Assembly: GCA_016180085.1 (NCBI GenBank)
Contig: JACPBX010000036.1
Coordinates: forward strand, 1-12,859
Direction of reading: 5' to 3'
Origin: Candidatus Woesearchaeota archaeon
GTDB lineage: Archaea > Nanobdellota > Nanobdellia > Woesearchaeales > UBA10216
DNA: 12,859 nucleotides
The first letter of the stretch is position 1. Each line of letters opens with the position of its first letter. A model generated the notes under the pieces. It saw only the letters and a list, made by a program, of their open reading frames with translations, was not told the DNA's origin and searched no databases. This document shows, piece by piece, positions 2,131 to 7,325 of this stretch. A program made the position numbers and the translations under genes.

Positions 2131-2219
2131 TTATTTAAACTTTGCCTTTTTGATGCGTGAGCTGAAAAATCAGTTTAGGCGATTTTTCCAAACGCGGAAT
2201 TTGGAAAAAATATTTAAAC
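2131..2219. promoter_or_regulatory. Divergent archaeal promoter region (corA / methyltransferase) with two TATA-like boxes and inverted repeats
   Basis: TTATTTAAAC at 2131-2140 reads TTTAAATA on the minus strand, towards corA. TATTTAAAC at 2211-2219 follows an A-rich BRE-like run and lies about 27 nt before ATG 2246. Inverted repeats at 2164-2188 and 2183-2209. Confidence 0.5.
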
Positions 2220-2245
2220 GCGCCAGAGGCAGTTTTGCAATTGTC

Positions 2246-2773
2246 ATGAAAAAGCAGGTTTTCAGGTTATTGGCAAATTTTGTTTTTCGGACAGGGCAAT
2301 TCAATAACAGGTCTGTAAGGGAATTTGCACAGCGAATCAGGGATAAAACTATTCTGGAGCTGGGCAGTGGGAGGATGGAAGGGGGGAAATACAGTTACTC
2401 CCTGAGGCGTTTTTTTGACCGTTCCAACAGGTTCCTTCAGTCCGATGTTGTTAAGGAGTTCGGGCACAGGGTTGTAGACGTAACGAAAATGAATTACAAA
2501 AGCGAGTTTGATGTCATACTGTGCACCAATGTTTTGGAGCACGTGTTTGATTTTCATAAGGCTGTTGTTAACATTTATGCTGCTTTGAAAAGCGGCGGCG
2601 CGGCAGTGATTTTTGTCCCGGCATTTTATCCCTTGCATGATGAGCCGAATGACTTTTGGAGGTTTACGGAGCACTCCCTGAAAATTCTGCTTAAGAAGTT
2701 CAGGAGAGTTGAAATCAGGCACAGTGGTTTGCGCCAGTATCCTTTCGCGTATTACGTTGAGGCATACAAATAG
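2246..2773 (+). CDS. Class I SAM-dependent methyltransferase (Methyltransf_11-like)
   Basis: Motif I ILELGSG, acidic motif LQSDV, then FDVILCTNVLEHV and LKSGG. The start is placed at ATG 2246 rather than TTG 2150 because a TATA-like box sits inside the extended ORF. Confidence 0.85.
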   Translation: MKKQVFRLLANFVFRTGQFNNRSVREFAQRIRDKTILELGSGRMEGGKYSYSLRRFFDRSNRFLQSDVVKEFGHRVVDVTKMNYKSEFDVILCTNVLEHVFDFHKAVVNIYAALKSGGAAVIFVPAFYPLHDEPNDFWRFTEHSLKILLKKFRRVEIRHSGLRQYPFAYYVEAYK

Positions 2774-2803
2774 GATTTAAGCCGCTCTGCAAAGGCTTTG
2801 AAC

Positions 2804-2839
2804 ATGCTAAAGATTGACGGAGGTTAGTTGGAGGGTTAA
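2804..2839 (+). pseudogene. Decayed remnant of the rtcA 5' end (MLKIDGG*LEG*)
   Basis: ATG CTA AAG ATT GAC GGA GGT TAG TTG GAG GGT TAA aligns without gaps to the start of the intact rtcA at 4383 (MIKLDGSYGEG). Five of 11 residues are identical (M, K, D, G... E, G pattern), with L/I and I/L swaps, and TAG falls at the Tyr codon. Same strand, 30 nt after the methyltransferase stop. It is short, so chance similarity cannot be fully excluded. Confidence 0.7.
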
Positions 2840-4382
2840 AATTTGCTTTTTCGGGTAATAGTTACCGGAAATCTTACGAAATAAAGCACTGGACACTGGA
2901 CAGATGCCCGGCGAGGGTATATAAACTACTTCTTCATAAGGCTCGGATGACCGCAGAGCTGCCAAAATTGTGATTTTCCCTTGCGCGGCAAGGTCGGCTT
3001 TACAACCTAAAATCACATTAGGCAGCTCCGCTTAAAGTCCTCCTCGCCAAACTACGGAGGTTTCTTTCCTAATGGAAGAAACCTCAACGCGTGATTGAGG
3101 TTTCAGGGGTAAAGAAAATGGTAAAAATAGATTTGCATTTACAAAAATCATTAACTAGCTATAAGAATAAATCTCCCTCTGTTAAGACTCTTATTCATTG
3201 GTACGATTTATATGAAAGACATAGTATCAAAATCGAAAATAACTTTCTGCTTCTGCTTTTAAGAAGGGCTATCTACAAAGCAGGCAATATATCAAATTTG
3301 GGTAAAGAACTTCATATTTCCAGAAAAGTCCTCTCAACTCTGCTTCATGGAAGGTATAACCCAAAAATTATTACTTTAAGAAAAGTAGCAGAGTATGTAA
3401 ACTACCCTTTAAATAAGATTGATAAAAAAGTTATCGAATTACGAAACCTCAAGCCAAACCTCCCTTTTAATCTTAATACAAAGGAAGGTGCGGAGATAAG
3501 AGCAGCTTTTTTATCTGATGGCCATAACGATAAAAATCCTGCAGGTAAGCCACAATATTGTGCTTTAGAGAAAGAATTGCACGTACGTTTGATTGAGCTT
3601 TGTGGCATAGTTTTTGGTGCTTTTAAAGCTAAGACAATTTTTAACAACAGATCATATATAACACGCTTTCCCGCGGTTTTGGGTTCTGCCCTAAAACTAA
3701 GCGGAGTTCCGAGAGGGAGTAAGCAAATAGCAAATTGCTATGTGCCAAAAGATATATTTCTCGGGAGTAAACAAATCCAAACGGCTTATTTAAGAAGATG
3801 TTTTGATGATGAAGGCGATGTTTGTTTTGATTCTCATGGAAAGCGTGCAGTCAGATTGGCAAGAAGCGTTGATATAACTACTAGCTGCAATTGGAATAAT
3901 CTCCCTTCTGAGAAATGGATAAGGTACAATTTGCCTGACACAATCAGAAATAATTTGCTGTTTGGGGAATGGCTTTTGCTTCTCAGGCTAAAAATAGACG
4001 CCAGATTTTATCCTGAAGGCATATACCTCTCTAAAAATAAGCAAATTACAGCAAAATGGCGAATACAAATTGGTCAGCAAGATAATGTGCGTAGATTCTC
4101 GAACTTGATAGGTTTCAATTTAAGAAACAAAAAAGAAAAATTGAGTAAAATGATAAATTCCTACAAATTTAGAAAACTACCAAACGGCGAAGGGAGAAAA
4201 CAGGCATTATTCTTTATCAGGAAAGTTTATAATGAGAAAGGCTACTTCCAATTTAATGACTTGGGAAAAGAATTAGTTGCTGGTGGCAGGAGTCACGATT
4301 TAGCAGGCATGTATTTAAAAGAATTTATCGAAAGGGGTCTCATTAGCAAAGTTAAGCGCGGAATTTATATTTTTAAGCAAAA
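2840..4382 (+). mobile_element. Putative free-standing homing-endonuclease element inserted at the rtcA 5' end (structured non-coding region plus LAGLIDADG ORF)
   Basis: Bounded by the rtcA remnant on the left and the intact rtcA start on the right. Much more AT-rich than the flanks: by hand count 15/60 G+C at 3121-3180 and 17/60 at 3601-3660, versus 38/60 at 4681-4740 in rtcA. Exact boundaries are inferred. Confidence 0.6.
2849..3104. ncRNA. Candidate structured RNA/leader of unknown family
   Basis: Complementary segments: 2849-2858/2862-2871; 2910-2917/3041-3048; 2953-2963/3021-3031; 2969-2977/3009-3017; 2979-2984/2988-2993; 2992-2996/3003-3007; 3057-3069/3074-3085; 3078-3087/3095-3104. 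No convincing tRNA, SRP, RNase P or group I core motifs were recognised. Confidence 0.5.
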
Positions 4383-4386
4383 ATGA
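3118..4386 (+). CDS. Double-motif LAGLIDADG (DOD-type) endonuclease-like protein with an N-terminal XRE-like HTH and a C-terminal winged-helix-like region
   Basis: Motif 1 is AEIRAAFLSDGH and motif 2 is AYLRRCFDDEGDV, both with acidic residues at the catalytic positions. HTH-like GNISNLGKELHISRKVLSTLLHGRYNPKIITLRKVAEYV; C-terminal YLKEFIERGLISKVKRGIY. No intein splicing blocks (no N-terminal C/S block, no terminal HN). ATG 3118 has a GGGGT SD (3106-3110); the track's GTG 3091 lies within a hairpin. Confidence 0.8.
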   Translation: MVKIDLHLQKSLTSYKNKSPSVKTLIHWYDLYERHSIKIENNFLLLLLRRAIYKAGNISNLGKELHISRKVLSTLLHGRYNPKIITLRKVAEYVNYPLNKIDKKVIELRNLKPNLPFNLNTKEGAEIRAAFLSDGHNDKNPAGKPQYCALEKELHVRLIELCGIVFGAFKAKTIFNNRSYITRFPAVLGSALKLSGVPRGSKQIANCYVPKDIFLGSKQIQTAYLRRCFDDEGDVCFDSHGKRAVRLARSVDITTSCNWNNLPSEKWIRYNLPDTIRNNLLFGEWLLLLRLKIDARFYPEGIYLSKNKQITAKWRIQIGQQDNVRRFSNLIGFNLRNKKEKLSKMINSYKFRKLPNGEGRKQALFFIRKVYNEKGYFQFNDLGKELVAGGRSHDLAGMYLKEFIERGLISKVKRGIYIFKQK

Positions 4387-5498
4387 TAAAATTGGATGGC
4401 TCATACGGTGAAGGCGGAGGTGCCATTTTGAGAATGGCTTTGGCACTCTCTTCTATTACTCTTCAACCCTTCGAGATTGTCAACATCCGCAAAGGGCGCC
4501 CTAATCCAGGCCTTCAGCCGCAGCACTTGGCATGCATAAAAGCCTTGGAAGATCTTTGCAACGCTTCTTCGGAAGGCGCTGAGGCAGGTTCTGCGACGGT
4601 AAAATTTTTTCCAGGCAAAGCTCAATCCCGCACATTAAGCATTGATATCGGCACTGCCGGCTCAGTTACTCTGCTGCTGCAGGCTGTTCTGCTCCCGGCA
4701 TTGTTCGCTCCAGGGAAGGTCCGCCTCAATCTGGCAGGCGGCACAAACGTGATGCGCAGCCAGCCTGCTGAGTATTTCAGCGAGGTTTTCCTTCCTCACA
4801 CAGCTCGTTTTGGCAGCTGCAGCTTTTCGCTATTGCGGCGGGGGTATTTTCCTAAGGGTGGCGGGAAGGCGGAGCTTGAGATAAGGCCGCTTTTCCGCCT
4901 TGGTGACTACGACACTTTTGCAGATTTCAGGAAAGCCGTTTCGCAGCAACTGCCAGGAATAAACCTGGCTGAAAGGGGAAAGCTCCTGAAAATAGCCGGG
5001 ATATCGCATGCCTCAGCGGATTTGAAAAAGGCTGAGGTTGCTGAAAGGCAGGCGCATTCAGCGAAGATTTCGCTTTCTCGGCAGCTGCTGAAAATTGGCA
5101 TAAGCTGCGGGATAACCATCCGGGCAGAGTACTCAGAATCCTTTTCAACAGGTTCAGGGATAACACTGTTTGCTTATTTCTCGGCTGCTGGAAAGGATGA
5201 CATTGATGCTGCCAATCCTGTAATTCTTGGCGCTGATGCGCTTGGCGAGCGTGGCAAAAAGGCCGAGGTTGTTGGCCAGGAAGCTGCAACTGCTTTGGTC
5301 AGGGAAATAAGCTCAGGGGCGTGCGTTGACCATTATCTTGCGGACCAGCTCATTCCTTTTATGGCCATTGCCGGCAACAGCAGGATTCTGACTTCGGAAG
5401 TAACAAACCATTGCCTTGCCAACATGTTTGTCGTGGAGAAATTCCTTGGCAGGTGCCTTGAGGCAGATAAGGAAAGAAAAGTGGTTCTGACTATTTGA
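4383..5498 (+). CDS. rtcA: RNA 3'-terminal phosphate cyclase
   Basis: DGSYGEGGGAILR, IR-GR--PGL--QH, GTAGS, GGT, RGYFPKGGG and YLADQL motifs. The adenylated His context is present (VTNHCLAN, equivalent to SCHLLTN in E. coli). The start overlaps the upstream stop (ATGA). Confidence 0.95.
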   Translation: MIKLDGSYGEGGGAILRMALALSSITLQPFEIVNIRKGRPNPGLQPQHLACIKALEDLCNASSEGAEAGSATVKFFPGKAQSRTLSIDIGTAGSVTLLLQAVLLPALFAPGKVRLNLAGGTNVMRSQPAEYFSEVFLPHTARFGSCSFSLLRRGYFPKGGGKAELEIRPLFRLGDYDTFADFRKAVSQQLPGINLAERGKLLKIAGISHASADLKKAEVAERQAHSAKISLSRQLLKIGISCGITIRAEYSESFSTGSGITLFAYFSAAGKDDIDAANPVILGADALGERGKKAEVVGQEAATALVREISSGACVDHYLADQLIPFMAIAGNSRILTSEVTNHCLANMFVVEKFLGRCLEADKERKVVLTI

Positions 5499-5502
5499 AC
5501 TA

Positions 5503-7209
5503 TTATCTGAGCGAAGCCAGCTTCAAGTCGGCTTCAACCTCAAGGATTTCGTACTCCATCTCTTTTTTCTCGTTCATCGTCATGTAGACTGTGTTGAAGA
5601 CAGACTGAGCCTGCTCAAGCGCCTTTTGGGCTTCGTCAACGTTGTTTTGCCGTATGTGCTGCTTTGCCTCTTCCAGTAGCGCCTGCAGCCTTTCTTTTCC
5701 GTATTCCCCTCCAAGCCTCAGGTCCGGCATCCCTTTCAGTTCCTGGGCAAAGTCCGGCAAGCGTTCAGGCTGCTCTGCCAGTAATGTCTCTTGCCTTTGC
5801 ACCGTGAGCCTGTGCTTCCTCATGAATATCCCAAACTTCTTCCTTTCAATTTCTCCTTTCTGCTTTATCAGCTCGTATCTTTTTCTGGTGATGTCAAGCT
5901 TGTTGGCGTTTAGCTCTGCTTCCTCGCTGCTTAGCTCCTTTTCATGTCTGTCCAGCTCCTCCTCTTTCCTGTCAAGCTCTGCCTCTTCGGGCGTTTTTCT
6001 TTCCCTTGCCTTTTTTATTCCCCTTGCGGATTCCCCTGCAACTTTTTCCTCGGAGGCCGGCAGCTCTTGCATTTCCTCTCCCATTCCTTCCTCAGCTTCT
6101 TCTTTCGTTTCTTTTTCTTTCCCTTTCCCGCTGCCCTCTGCCCATTGTGCATAGTGGGGCTCAAGCTCAGCAGCTTCTGCGTCTGATTTTTGATCCCTGT
6201 CAGCCTTGCCTGGCCTGAATTCGCCCATTCCTGTCCTTGGCGTTTCTGGCATCCCGAACTCTTCGCCAAGCTCCCCAAGATCTTCCAGGCTTGGCAGTTC
6301 AGGCACTGTGCCTTCTTTTTGCACTATCTCCTCTTCCCGATTGCCTTGCATGCCGGCTTGGGCCTCTGGATGTTCTTCTGCAAATAGCTCAGGAATACTC
6401 CCCTCCTTGTATGGAGTTTCAGGAATCTTGGGGAACTCAGGAAGTTCAGGCACCGCCTGCACCGCCTCTTCAGGGCCTTTTTTCTTGAATGGCCAGAACC
6501 ACCTTCCTGGTTTTGCAGTGCGCTTGGCTTCTGTAGTTTCTGCTTCTTCAGTTTTTTCAGTTATTGGGGGGATTTCAGGCAGCTTTAGTTCCAGTTCATC
6601 GCCAAGCCTTTCTTTTTCAATTTGCGTTTCCTGCGCTTCTTTTGGCATCTCAATCCCATCCTTCGCCGGTTTTATCTCTGCAGCAGCCCTCGCCCTCACA
6701 AGTTTCCTGGCTGGTTTTGTTGCTTTCATTGTCTTTGCAGCCGCCATTGCTGCCGTTTCCGCTTTTCTCCTTGCGGTCTTGAGGTTCAGAATTTCTTTTT
6801 CTACATACCTTGCGGCTTGCAGCCTGCCTTTTGCGCTTCTAAGCTGGCCAGCGAGCTTGTCATCGTTCACTATTTCCTTTACCCACTCGGCAATGTCATT
6901 CCGCTCCTCGTTCACGTGCTCCTTGTAGTCAGCCGCCTTCATTTTCTTCAGCGCTGTGGCAAGTTCTTTCAGGCTCTTTACAGTTGCGCCGTTATTAAGC
7001 CAAAGGGCCAGCTCCGGCTCAACCTCTTCCTTCGCATTTAAGGCTGCCTCAGCGCCCTCCCCAGCTGCCTGCTCTGATTCAATCTCTCTCGCAGCTGCGA
7101 CATCTATTTTTTTTAAGAATTCCGGCTCTTCCTGTGCAGCTGCAGCAGCTAAGGTGCTAATTGTATCTTCTCTTTTTTTGCCTAGCTTCAAAAAGCCGAA
7201 TAAGCCCAT
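5503..7209 (-). CDS. Large acidic hypothetical protein with a DUF5752-like domain, a disordered E/P-rich linker, a coiled coil and a C-terminal helical module
   Basis: LWLNNGATVKSLKELATALKKM---YKEHVNEERNDIAEWVKEIVNDDKLA resembles the DUF5752 pattern as recalled from Woesearchaeota proteins (not searched). ATG 7209 (MGLFGFLK) is preceded by GAGGGGG. Confidence 0.7.
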   Translation of the reverse strand: MGLFGFLKLGKKREDTISTLAAAAAQEEPEFLKKIDVAAAREIESEQAAGEGAEAALNAKEEVEPELALWLNNGATVKSLKELATALKKMKAADYKEHVNEERNDIAEWVKEIVNDDKLAGQLRSAKGRLQAARYVEKEILNLKTARRKAETAAMAAAKTMKATKPARKLVRARAAAEIKPAKDGIEMPKEAQETQIEKERLGDELELKLPEIPPITEKTEEAETTEAKRTAKPGRWFWPFKKKGPEEAVQAVPELPEFPKIPETPYKEGSIPELFAEEHPEAQAGMQGNREEEIVQKEGTVPELPSLEDLGELGEEFGMPETPRTGMGEFRPGKADRDQKSDAEAAELEPHYAQWAEGSGKGKEKETKEEAEEGMGEEMQELPASEEKVAGESARGIKKARERKTPEEAELDRKEEELDRHEKELSSEEAELNANKLDITRKRYELIKQKGEIERKKFGIFMRKHRLTVQRQETLLAEQPERLPDFAQELKGMPDLRLGGEYGKERLQALLEEAKQHIRQNNVDEAQKALEQAQSVFNTVYMTMNEKKEMEYEILEVEADLKLASLR

Positions 7210-7325
7210 TACTTCCCCCTCTTTTACTGCTCCCGGCACTAAAAACCGTTATTGCTGCTATTTAATACTTTTGATTTTTAAAATTGCAAATCTTTTTAAA
7301 GCTCCTGCTGTTCCACCCTCTTGGC

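Follow-up and report, generated by a model that had tools for sequence, protein, structure and literature searches.

A new family of covarying structured elements in the control module of free-standing homing endonuclease genes of Woesearchaeales

Free-standing homing endonucleases are toxic selfish genes, and to our knowledge little has been reported on how archaea, especially the tiny DPANN archaea, restrain them. In IS10 (RNA-OUT), in IS200 (art200), and in type I antitoxins, a long imperfect stem-loop lying over the 5' end of an mRNA silences a selfish or toxic gene; in IS200, besides the upstream hairpin, another stem-loop conceals the ribosome-binding site. In homing endonuclease genes of phage T4, such as I-TevI, a hairpin buries the Shine-Dalgarno (SD) sequence and limits translation.

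The element described here is located at positions 2944-3050 of a stretch of 12,859 nucleotides from a Woesearchaeota genome (hereafter the window). Equally to IS10 RNA-IN/RNA-OUT, IS200/art200, and type I toxin-antitoxin systems, its stem-loop overlaps the (predicted) 5' end of the mRNA of a selfish gene, and as in IS200 an upstream hairpin is combined with a hairpin masking the SD site. There are also differences: the element is archaeal, its partners are homing endonucleases, an antisense promoter is not recognisable, the conserved hairpin lies off the SD site and the start codon, and the operator is common to DNA-repair genes. Similar to the I-TevI hairpins, the hairpin CUCCAAAG...CUUUGGAGG of the family members with low GC content buries the GGAGG Shine-Dalgarno site, whereas 2944-3050 is a distinct upstream domain of far greater size, which covaries in its own right and whose strand signature is the opposite one. 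With riboswitches and attenuators the locus has in common a structured 5' domain followed by mutually exclusive hairpins (H1 and H2, see below), as well as a U-tract in low-GC members; unlike these, it shows no association with metabolic genes, consists of a mostly continuous helix without an invariant pocket, and has wobble pairs that favour the other strand. No paper describing the element was found in the literature; PMC6125680 deals with group I introns within the rRNA genes of these archaea and is a different matter.

A sequence-only reading of the window had proposed an extensively paired RNA between 2910 and 3048. A structured element of around 100 bases (roughly 85-110 nt across the family) is real, but its borders have to be corrected to 2944-3050, the part matched by the covariance models (113.6 bits with model R1, 87.8 bits with model R2) and given here without assignment to a strand. 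The region 2905-3055 folds with -50.4 kcal/mol (z -3.9) on the plus strand and with -63.9 kcal/mol (z -5.5) on the minus strand, and on either strand none of 200 dinucleotide shuffles folded as well. The element is closed by helix P1, whose 5' arm GGATGAC (2945-2951) pairs with 3037-3043, followed by P2 (2953-2963 with 3021-3031), an internal loop, P3 (2969-2977 with 3009-3017), and an apex (2979-3007) with two hairpins, CCTTGC-GCG-GCAAGG at 2979-2993 and a second small one at 2996-3007; between the 3' arms of P2 and P1 (together 3021-3043) lies a conserved linker, CTYAAM (3032-3036). P1 of the window contains one U.C mismatch, whereas the other three copies of the genome read GGAGGAC/GTCCTCC. 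P1, P2, an A/U-rich internal loop, and P3 are conserved across the family, while the apex is variable, with two hairpins in GC-rich members and a single one in AT-rich members. The whole is mostly one continuous helix and not a junction of several helices with an invariant pocket; its conserved bases that remain unpaired are rich in A on the plus strand.

P2, P3, and both apical hairpins had already been recognised in the sequence-only reading, and the two helices are now found to covary across the four genomic copies and more than 200 related loci. Its outer helix, 2910-2917/3041-3048, is unsupported, because the 5' arm is promoter DNA, with an operator repeat on one side and the TATA box on the other, and because other family members do not preserve the pairing; the family-wide closing helix in its place is 2945-2951/3037-3043, as redefined from the comparison of the four copies. 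Nor is the suggested pseudoknot between GGCTTT and AAAGTC kept in the alignment of the three paralogous copies. A longer P1, extended by GC, tandem GA, and GC as read on the minus strand, was considered as well; 15 of 31 high-GC members have this sequence, but the extension was dropped because cognate flanks pair no better than non-cognate ones. Two coding candidates were likewise rejected: a conserved upstream ORF starting from an AUG in P3 has differing lengths and stops between members, and for a small ORF spanning the core no consistent open frame exists on either strand. Searches against Rfam 15 gave no match at the gathering threshold and none at E<=10 over 2600-3400, nor was the element matched at E<=1 in 14 other family members, such that it has no match in Rfam; tRNA or tmRNA genes were not detected in the window.

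The source genome (45 contigs, 1.0 Mb, 83% completeness) contains four copies of the element with 83-100% identity (C25, which is that of the window, C36, C18, and C11), and these alone exhibit five compensatory pairs. A covariance model built from them found matches in 22 of 100 relatives, some genomes having as many as six copies; a second model found matches in 23 of 151 genomes of the order, a tally that takes in the unpublished genome G155, of which no sequence was used. The element is accordingly absent from about 80-85% of related genomes, and the matches listed from a phylum-level sample all fell within the same order. An exact-pattern scan with one genome per species yielded 108 stretches, nearly all of them titled Candidatus Woesearchaeota, Nanoarchaeota, or Nanoarchaeia, and at least 120 stretches with the pattern were found in metagenomes. 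Altogether, over 200 loci from metagenomes and from MAGs of Woesearchaeota/Nanoarchaeota make up the family.

In the alignment of 32 genome loci, 94.5% of the cells are paired (at most 52% in slid controls), 18 of 36 pairs are changed on both sides, and the covariation score amounts to 0.195 as against 0.077 in shuffles, none of 500 of which reached the observed value. A separate set of 71 distinct metagenome loci gave 91.7% paired cells and 21 of 35 doubly changed pairs, again with none of 500 shuffles as good. Of the P1 pairs, 5 of 6 (genome set) and 6 of 6 (metagenome set) are changed on both sides, and in P3 an A-U pair is swapped for C-G in about half of the members; variation within the family is confined to such helix covariation and to the apex. 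Positions 2944-3050 of the window thus defined belong to a new family of structured elements with strong covariation.

In Woesearchaeales, free-standing homing endonuclease genes carry a portable control module, and the element belongs to it. The order of this module is operator repeat, TATA box, element hairpin, SD-masking hairpin, and ATG, and the orientation of the element relative to the ORF is constant across loci. On its 3' side follows a leader of 20-70 nt with a hairpin, a GGAGG-type site, and the ATG. GC-rich members, including the window, possess two alternative leader hairpins (on the plus strand of the window H1, 3056-3069 with 3074-3085, and H2, 3078-3087 with 3095-3104) with a common middle segment, whereas in low-GC members P1 is followed by U4-6 and the SD-burying hairpin mentioned above is present. 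In the window, the SD-like GGGGT and the ATG at 3118 (3106-3120) form part of the block GGTAAAGAAAATG, which is conserved before unrelated endonuclease ORFs. The conserved core itself covers neither the SD site nor the start codon, and no alternative pairing links it to the SD hairpin.

An ORF is situated 3' of the element in 100 of 105 loci, and among those with enough downstream sequence only 1 of 101 lacks one. LAGLIDADG_3 was found in 59 of 96 following ORFs (14 of 30 plus 45 of 66); others matched LAGLIDADG_1/2 or Hom_end, and several encode Mrr_cat + HNH_repeat proteins. A Y1 (IS200-type) transposase occurred in 1 of 66, and one ORF encodes a 23S-IVP protein; a recombinase is not linked in 95 of 96 loci. 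Within the source genome, the module is 83-93% identical before four unrelated nuclease ORFs, and the other LAGLIDADG matches are intein-like because they lie inside very long frames. The contexts of the element are intergenic or at gene starts, and not in rRNA or tRNA genes.

Concerning the promoter, the TATA box TATATAAA (2918-2925, plus strand), already noted in the sequence-only reading, turned out to be position-fixed across the family: the element starts about 20-25 nt 3' of a canonical TATA box, and a matrix score of at least 8 is reached between -36 and -25 from the element start in 74% of 89 loci. Upstream of it lies an operator-like direct repeat, CACTGGACACTGGACA (2887-2902, plus strand), which with up to 2 mismatches has 17 sites in the genome, each about 13-17 nt 5' of a TATA box, and which 60 of 99 family loci possess when up to 4 mismatches are allowed. 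Elsewhere in the genome, this promoter occurs about 13 times without the element. Besides the four cassettes, repeat and TATA box precede a set of genes of DNA repair and the mobilome, namely those for a Y-family DNA polymerase (IMS), an RNase_H_2-type exonuclease, a primase-polymerase-like protein, a Cas4/PD-(D/E)XK nuclease, three Bro-N proteins, and an HsdM fragment. Most of these non-cassette genes have their ATG 23-27 nt after the TATA box and are probably leaderless, which places the predicted start of the cassette transcript at about 2945-2950, at or just inside P1. The element would then form the first roughly 100 nt of the nuclease mRNA.

The cassette of the window contains a gene (3118-4386, plus strand) with 34% GC as compared to about 50% in its flanks, encoding a homing endonuclease with an HTH domain and two LAGLIDADG-type motifs. 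Pfam gives the HTH domain only, and the motifs (FLSDGH and FDDEGD) were read from the translation; in a search of PDB sequences, the HTH part alone was matched, weakly. The gene is followed by rtcA (RNA 3'-phosphate cyclase, 4383-5498, plus strand), whose complete new start, MIKLDGSYGEGGG at 4383, overlaps the endonuclease stop codon (ATGA), and it is preceded on the left side of the inserted cassette by a dead rtcA 5' end (MLKIDGG*LEG*, 2804-2839, plus strand). In relatives, corA and rtcA are adjacent divergent neighbours, whereas in the window a methyltransferase gene, the dead rtcA start, the module, and the low-GC endonuclease gene are found, in this order, between them, and the rtcA promoter seen in relatives is gone. 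The dead start, the new overlapping start, and the lost promoter together indicate that the cassette replaced the promoter and the first codons of its host gene. In the comparison with the empty site the left border of the cassette is approximate, because the source genome also has the methyltransferase gene between corA and rtcA.

As to which strand folds, the substitution pattern and the promoter disagree. The sequence-only reading had taken two A-C mismatches on the plus strand, which become G-U pairs on the minus strand, as a hint at an antisense-oriented RNA; this observation generalises to the whole family and is its strongest statistical signal. Plus-strand cells with A.C/C.A and with G.U/U.G occur at 18:10, 60:16, and 50:23 in three alignments, whose related sequences are not fully independent, and with relatives at 80-95% identity counted once the ratio is still 45-56:14, such that A.C exceeds G.U in the core 2-4 to 1. 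A near-invariant column of P2 reads A.C in 24, A-U in 6 (a fifth of the members), and otherwise in 2 cases on the plus strand; read on the minus strand, the first two states become G.U and A-U. The closing (last) pair of P1 is C-G in 59, C.A in 15, U-A in 10, and U.G in 1 case, a series that reads as a classic path through a wobble pair only on the minus strand. In 157 of 162 cores (89 of 91 plus 68 of 71), the minimum free energy is lower for the minus strand, and G.U accounts for 7.5% or 4.0% of the core pairs there but for 1.3% or 0.9% on the plus strand. Loops of the GNRA/GNNA type occur 20 times on the minus strand, whereas the plus strand has 5 UNCG loops. In the leader hairpins the bias is opposite in GC-rich members (9.9% G.U on the plus strand, 5.4% on the minus strand) and otherwise missing, and regional mutational skew therefore does not explain the core pattern. 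From all this we infer that the fold kept by selection is that of the complementary (minus) strand.

A minus-strand promoter is, however, not evident. Regular expressions and a matrix trained on the plus-strand TATA boxes revealed no positioned TATA-like box within 110-150 nt; a score of at least 8 is reached in 2% of the 110-nt upstream segments of the minus strand and in 3% of controls, as compared to the 74% at the plus-strand promoter, and the candidates are solely weak A/T-rich hairpin loops in low-GC members. The orientation of the flanking genes (upstream 48 co-directional and 36 opposite, downstream 41 and 28) does not reveal a source of antisense read-through either. Features of a cis-antisense RNA are thus found in the stem-loop fold kept on the strand opposite the gene and not in a promoter of its own; features of a sense leader are found in the 5' UTR position, the fixed orientation, and the use of the gene's promoter, and not in a tolerance of G.U with avoidance of A.C. 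Such a clash, with promoter geometry pointing to the plus strand and wobble statistics to the minus strand, is unusual.

Because the substitution pattern favours the minus-strand fold, a sense/antisense pair is preferred, albeit tentatively, as the best explanation: the element may be a control hairpin in which a minus-strand RNA acts together with the 5' end of the nuclease mRNA and keeps the nuclease silent. The mRNA would start at or just inside P1, and the minus strand would give rise to a stable, structured small RNA spanning this 5' end, in the manner of IS10 RNA-OUT, IS200 art200, and type I antitoxins. By pairing with the mRNA, and together with the SD hairpin of the plus strand, it would keep the toxic nuclease silent, while the operator common to DNA-repair genes would decide when the promoter fires. 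The absent antisense promoter is the main weakness of this explanation, and the fixed spacing between the plus-strand TATA box and P1 counts against it because a sense leader would need that spacing. The A-rich unpaired bases of the plus strand, and the position of the core away from both SD site and start codon, were likewise counted against the antisense explanation.

A plus-strand, cis-acting leader is a possible alternative, with somewhat less in its favour. The hairpin would be the 5'-terminal domain of the nuclease mRNA, serving as a stabiliser, as an attenuator, or as a site for a protein or small ligand, and would set translation together with the SD-masking hairpin. This agrees with the canonical TATA box at fixed distance on the plus strand only, with the start at P1 (about 2945-2950) as judged from the leaderless genes under the same promoter, with the constant orientation in all loci, and with the A-rich unpaired bases. 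The downstream hairpins, furthermore, mask GGAGG and carry a plus-strand G.U signature, H1 and H2 have one segment in common in the manner of an expression platform, and P1 followed by U4-6 in low-GC members would suit an attenuator. On the other hand, G.U makes up only about 1% of the plus-strand pairs and A.C is 2-4 times as frequent in three data sets; in the high-GC group the start is predicted inside P1, such that part of the covarying helix may be missing from the transcript; and neither an alternative pairing between core and SD hairpin nor a conserved upstream ORF was found.

Both strands might also act within one module, which is considered rather unlikely in the following form: the plus strand would supply a promoter wired to DNA repair and an mRNA with a masked ribosome-binding site, the selected fold would come from the minus strand over the first 100 nt, and homing would be licensed only during DNA repair. 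The minus-strand species would be either an antisense RNA that is promoter-less or unconventionally initiated, or a hairpin of single-stranded DNA that becomes exposed when DNA is repaired or replicated.

That the hairpin acts in single-stranded DNA of the minus strand, as a signal for recombination, priming, or transposition of the cassette comparable to integron attC sites, the end hairpins of IS200/IS605, or single-strand origins, appears improbable. It would account for a minus-strand pairing signature without a minus-strand promoter, and G.T wobbles, GNA/GNRA loops, and tandem G.A pairs are generally stable in DNA as well; moreover, one downstream ORF is an IS200-type Y1 transposase, and a primase-polymerase-like gene stands under the same promoter motif. 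The hairpin is, however, internal to the module, between promoter and ORF, and not at a cassette end; as read from the sequence, no matching second hairpin was seen at the 3' end of the window cassette; and a recombinase is hardly ever linked. Homing endonucleases, finally, spread by double-strand-break repair and need no such signal.

It is very improbable that the element is an independent housekeeping small-RNA gene and merely a landing site for homing endonucleases, as its multiple copies and high sequence conservation might suggest, since it is almost never without a following ORF, is absent from most related genomes, and has its promoter and leader in common with the nuclease gene. Equally improbable are an omega-RNA-like guide RNA and the degenerate core of a ribozyme or intron, even if group I or archaeal introns, among them those of Woesearchaeota rRNA genes, are often home to LAGLIDADG genes (PMC6125680): neither group I introns nor other ribozymes were matched at E<=10 over 2600-3400, the Rfam search at E<=1 gave no match to the element in 14 relatives either, the apex is variable, a bulge-helix-bulge motif is missing, the contexts are not rRNA or tRNA genes, and the partners are protein-only nucleases of unrelated families (LAGLIDADG or Mrr-like, PD-(D/E)XK), whereas the omega-RNA of TnpB/IscB needs an RNA-guided RuvC/HNH nuclease and a variable guide segment, neither of which is present. 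Of the sequence-only interpretation, which had considered an endonuclease-associated non-coding RNA, a degenerate ribozyme or intron core, and a regulatory leader by analogy with the RNAs of HNH/TnpB nucleases, a structured, endonuclease-associated, non-coding element without Rfam family in the leader of an HTH-LAGLIDADG gene is retained, while the ribozyme or intron core and the guide-RNA analogy are not supported.

The family provides over 200 natural instances in which a single portable control module stands before unrelated nucleases, and the rtcA case is an example of how such cassettes rewire host genes. The operator common to genes for a translesion polymerase, a Cas4-like nuclease, a primase-polymerase, and Bro-N proteins points to a so far undescribed regulon of the DNA-damage type in Woesearchaeota. 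The clash between plus and minus strand is directly testable by strand-specific mapping of transcripts, and either outcome, if true, would be a novelty: an antisense lock with which archaea restrain homing endonucleases, or a hairpin that functions in single-stranded DNA.

The cassette, which comprises the operator repeat, a TATA box, the hairpin element (window 2944-3050), the leader hairpins, a Shine-Dalgarno sequence and the endonuclease ORF, appears to have entered at the 5' coding end of rtcA (RNA 3'-phosphate cyclase; window 4383-5498, plus strand) and to have supplied this gene with a new start. Upstream of the cassette lies a defunct copy of rtcA codons 1-12 (window 2804-2839), the live replacement start (window 4383-4424) overlaps the endonuclease stop codon (ATGA), and the promoter found before rtcA in relatives is lost from the window gene. 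A class I methyltransferase gene (window 2150-2773) lies here between corA, the neighbour of rtcA in relatives, and rtcA; it is found on the opposite side of rtcA in one same-genus genome (G007) and is missing at the corA/rtcA spot in the remaining relatives compared. Its placement is a local rearrangement adjoining the cassette. Concerning the minus-strand ORF of 578 aa (window 5503-7239), no Pfam match was obtained; its composition is strongly skewed, with plus-strand AT skew reaching as low as -0.6, and conservation in same-genus genomes is limited to its N- and C-terminal parts.

In other genomes, tRNA genes are situated a few hundred bases from cassettes (L036:1199-1304, L032:1959-2042 and L143:1794-1943). 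Two of these three contain long inserts, which are probably introns, and the endonuclease ORF of L143 overlaps at its 3' end with the tRNA gene.

In the window's own genome, the copy on contig C36 (L008, G000:C36:1-475) lacks the segment with the alternative leader hairpins H1/H2 (window 3056-3104), which is present in the orthologous cassette of a sister genome (L018); the deletion fuses a pair of direct repeats resembling GAGGTTTC, suggesting that the segment was lost by recombination between them. In AT-rich loci (L093, L109, L120, L074, L088 and others), the entire leader is near-identical across different MAGs, right down to its hairpin loop and the spacer between SD and ATG (GGAGGTTGATTAAAATG), despite unrelated endonuclease ORFs, implying that modules have been swapped or have recently spread horizontally.

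The operator-like direct repeat CACTGGACACTGGACA with its TATA box (window 2887-2925) also occurs at 16 other sites in the genome (e.g., C11:8843, C18:11157, C40:35129 and C41:1660). Downstream of this promoter, the same genome encodes a Y-family polymerase, an RNase_H_2 exonuclease, a primase-polymerase-like protein, a Cas4-like nuclease, three Bro-N proteins and HsdM, a gene set resembling a woesearchaeotal regulon for DNA damage or the mobilome.
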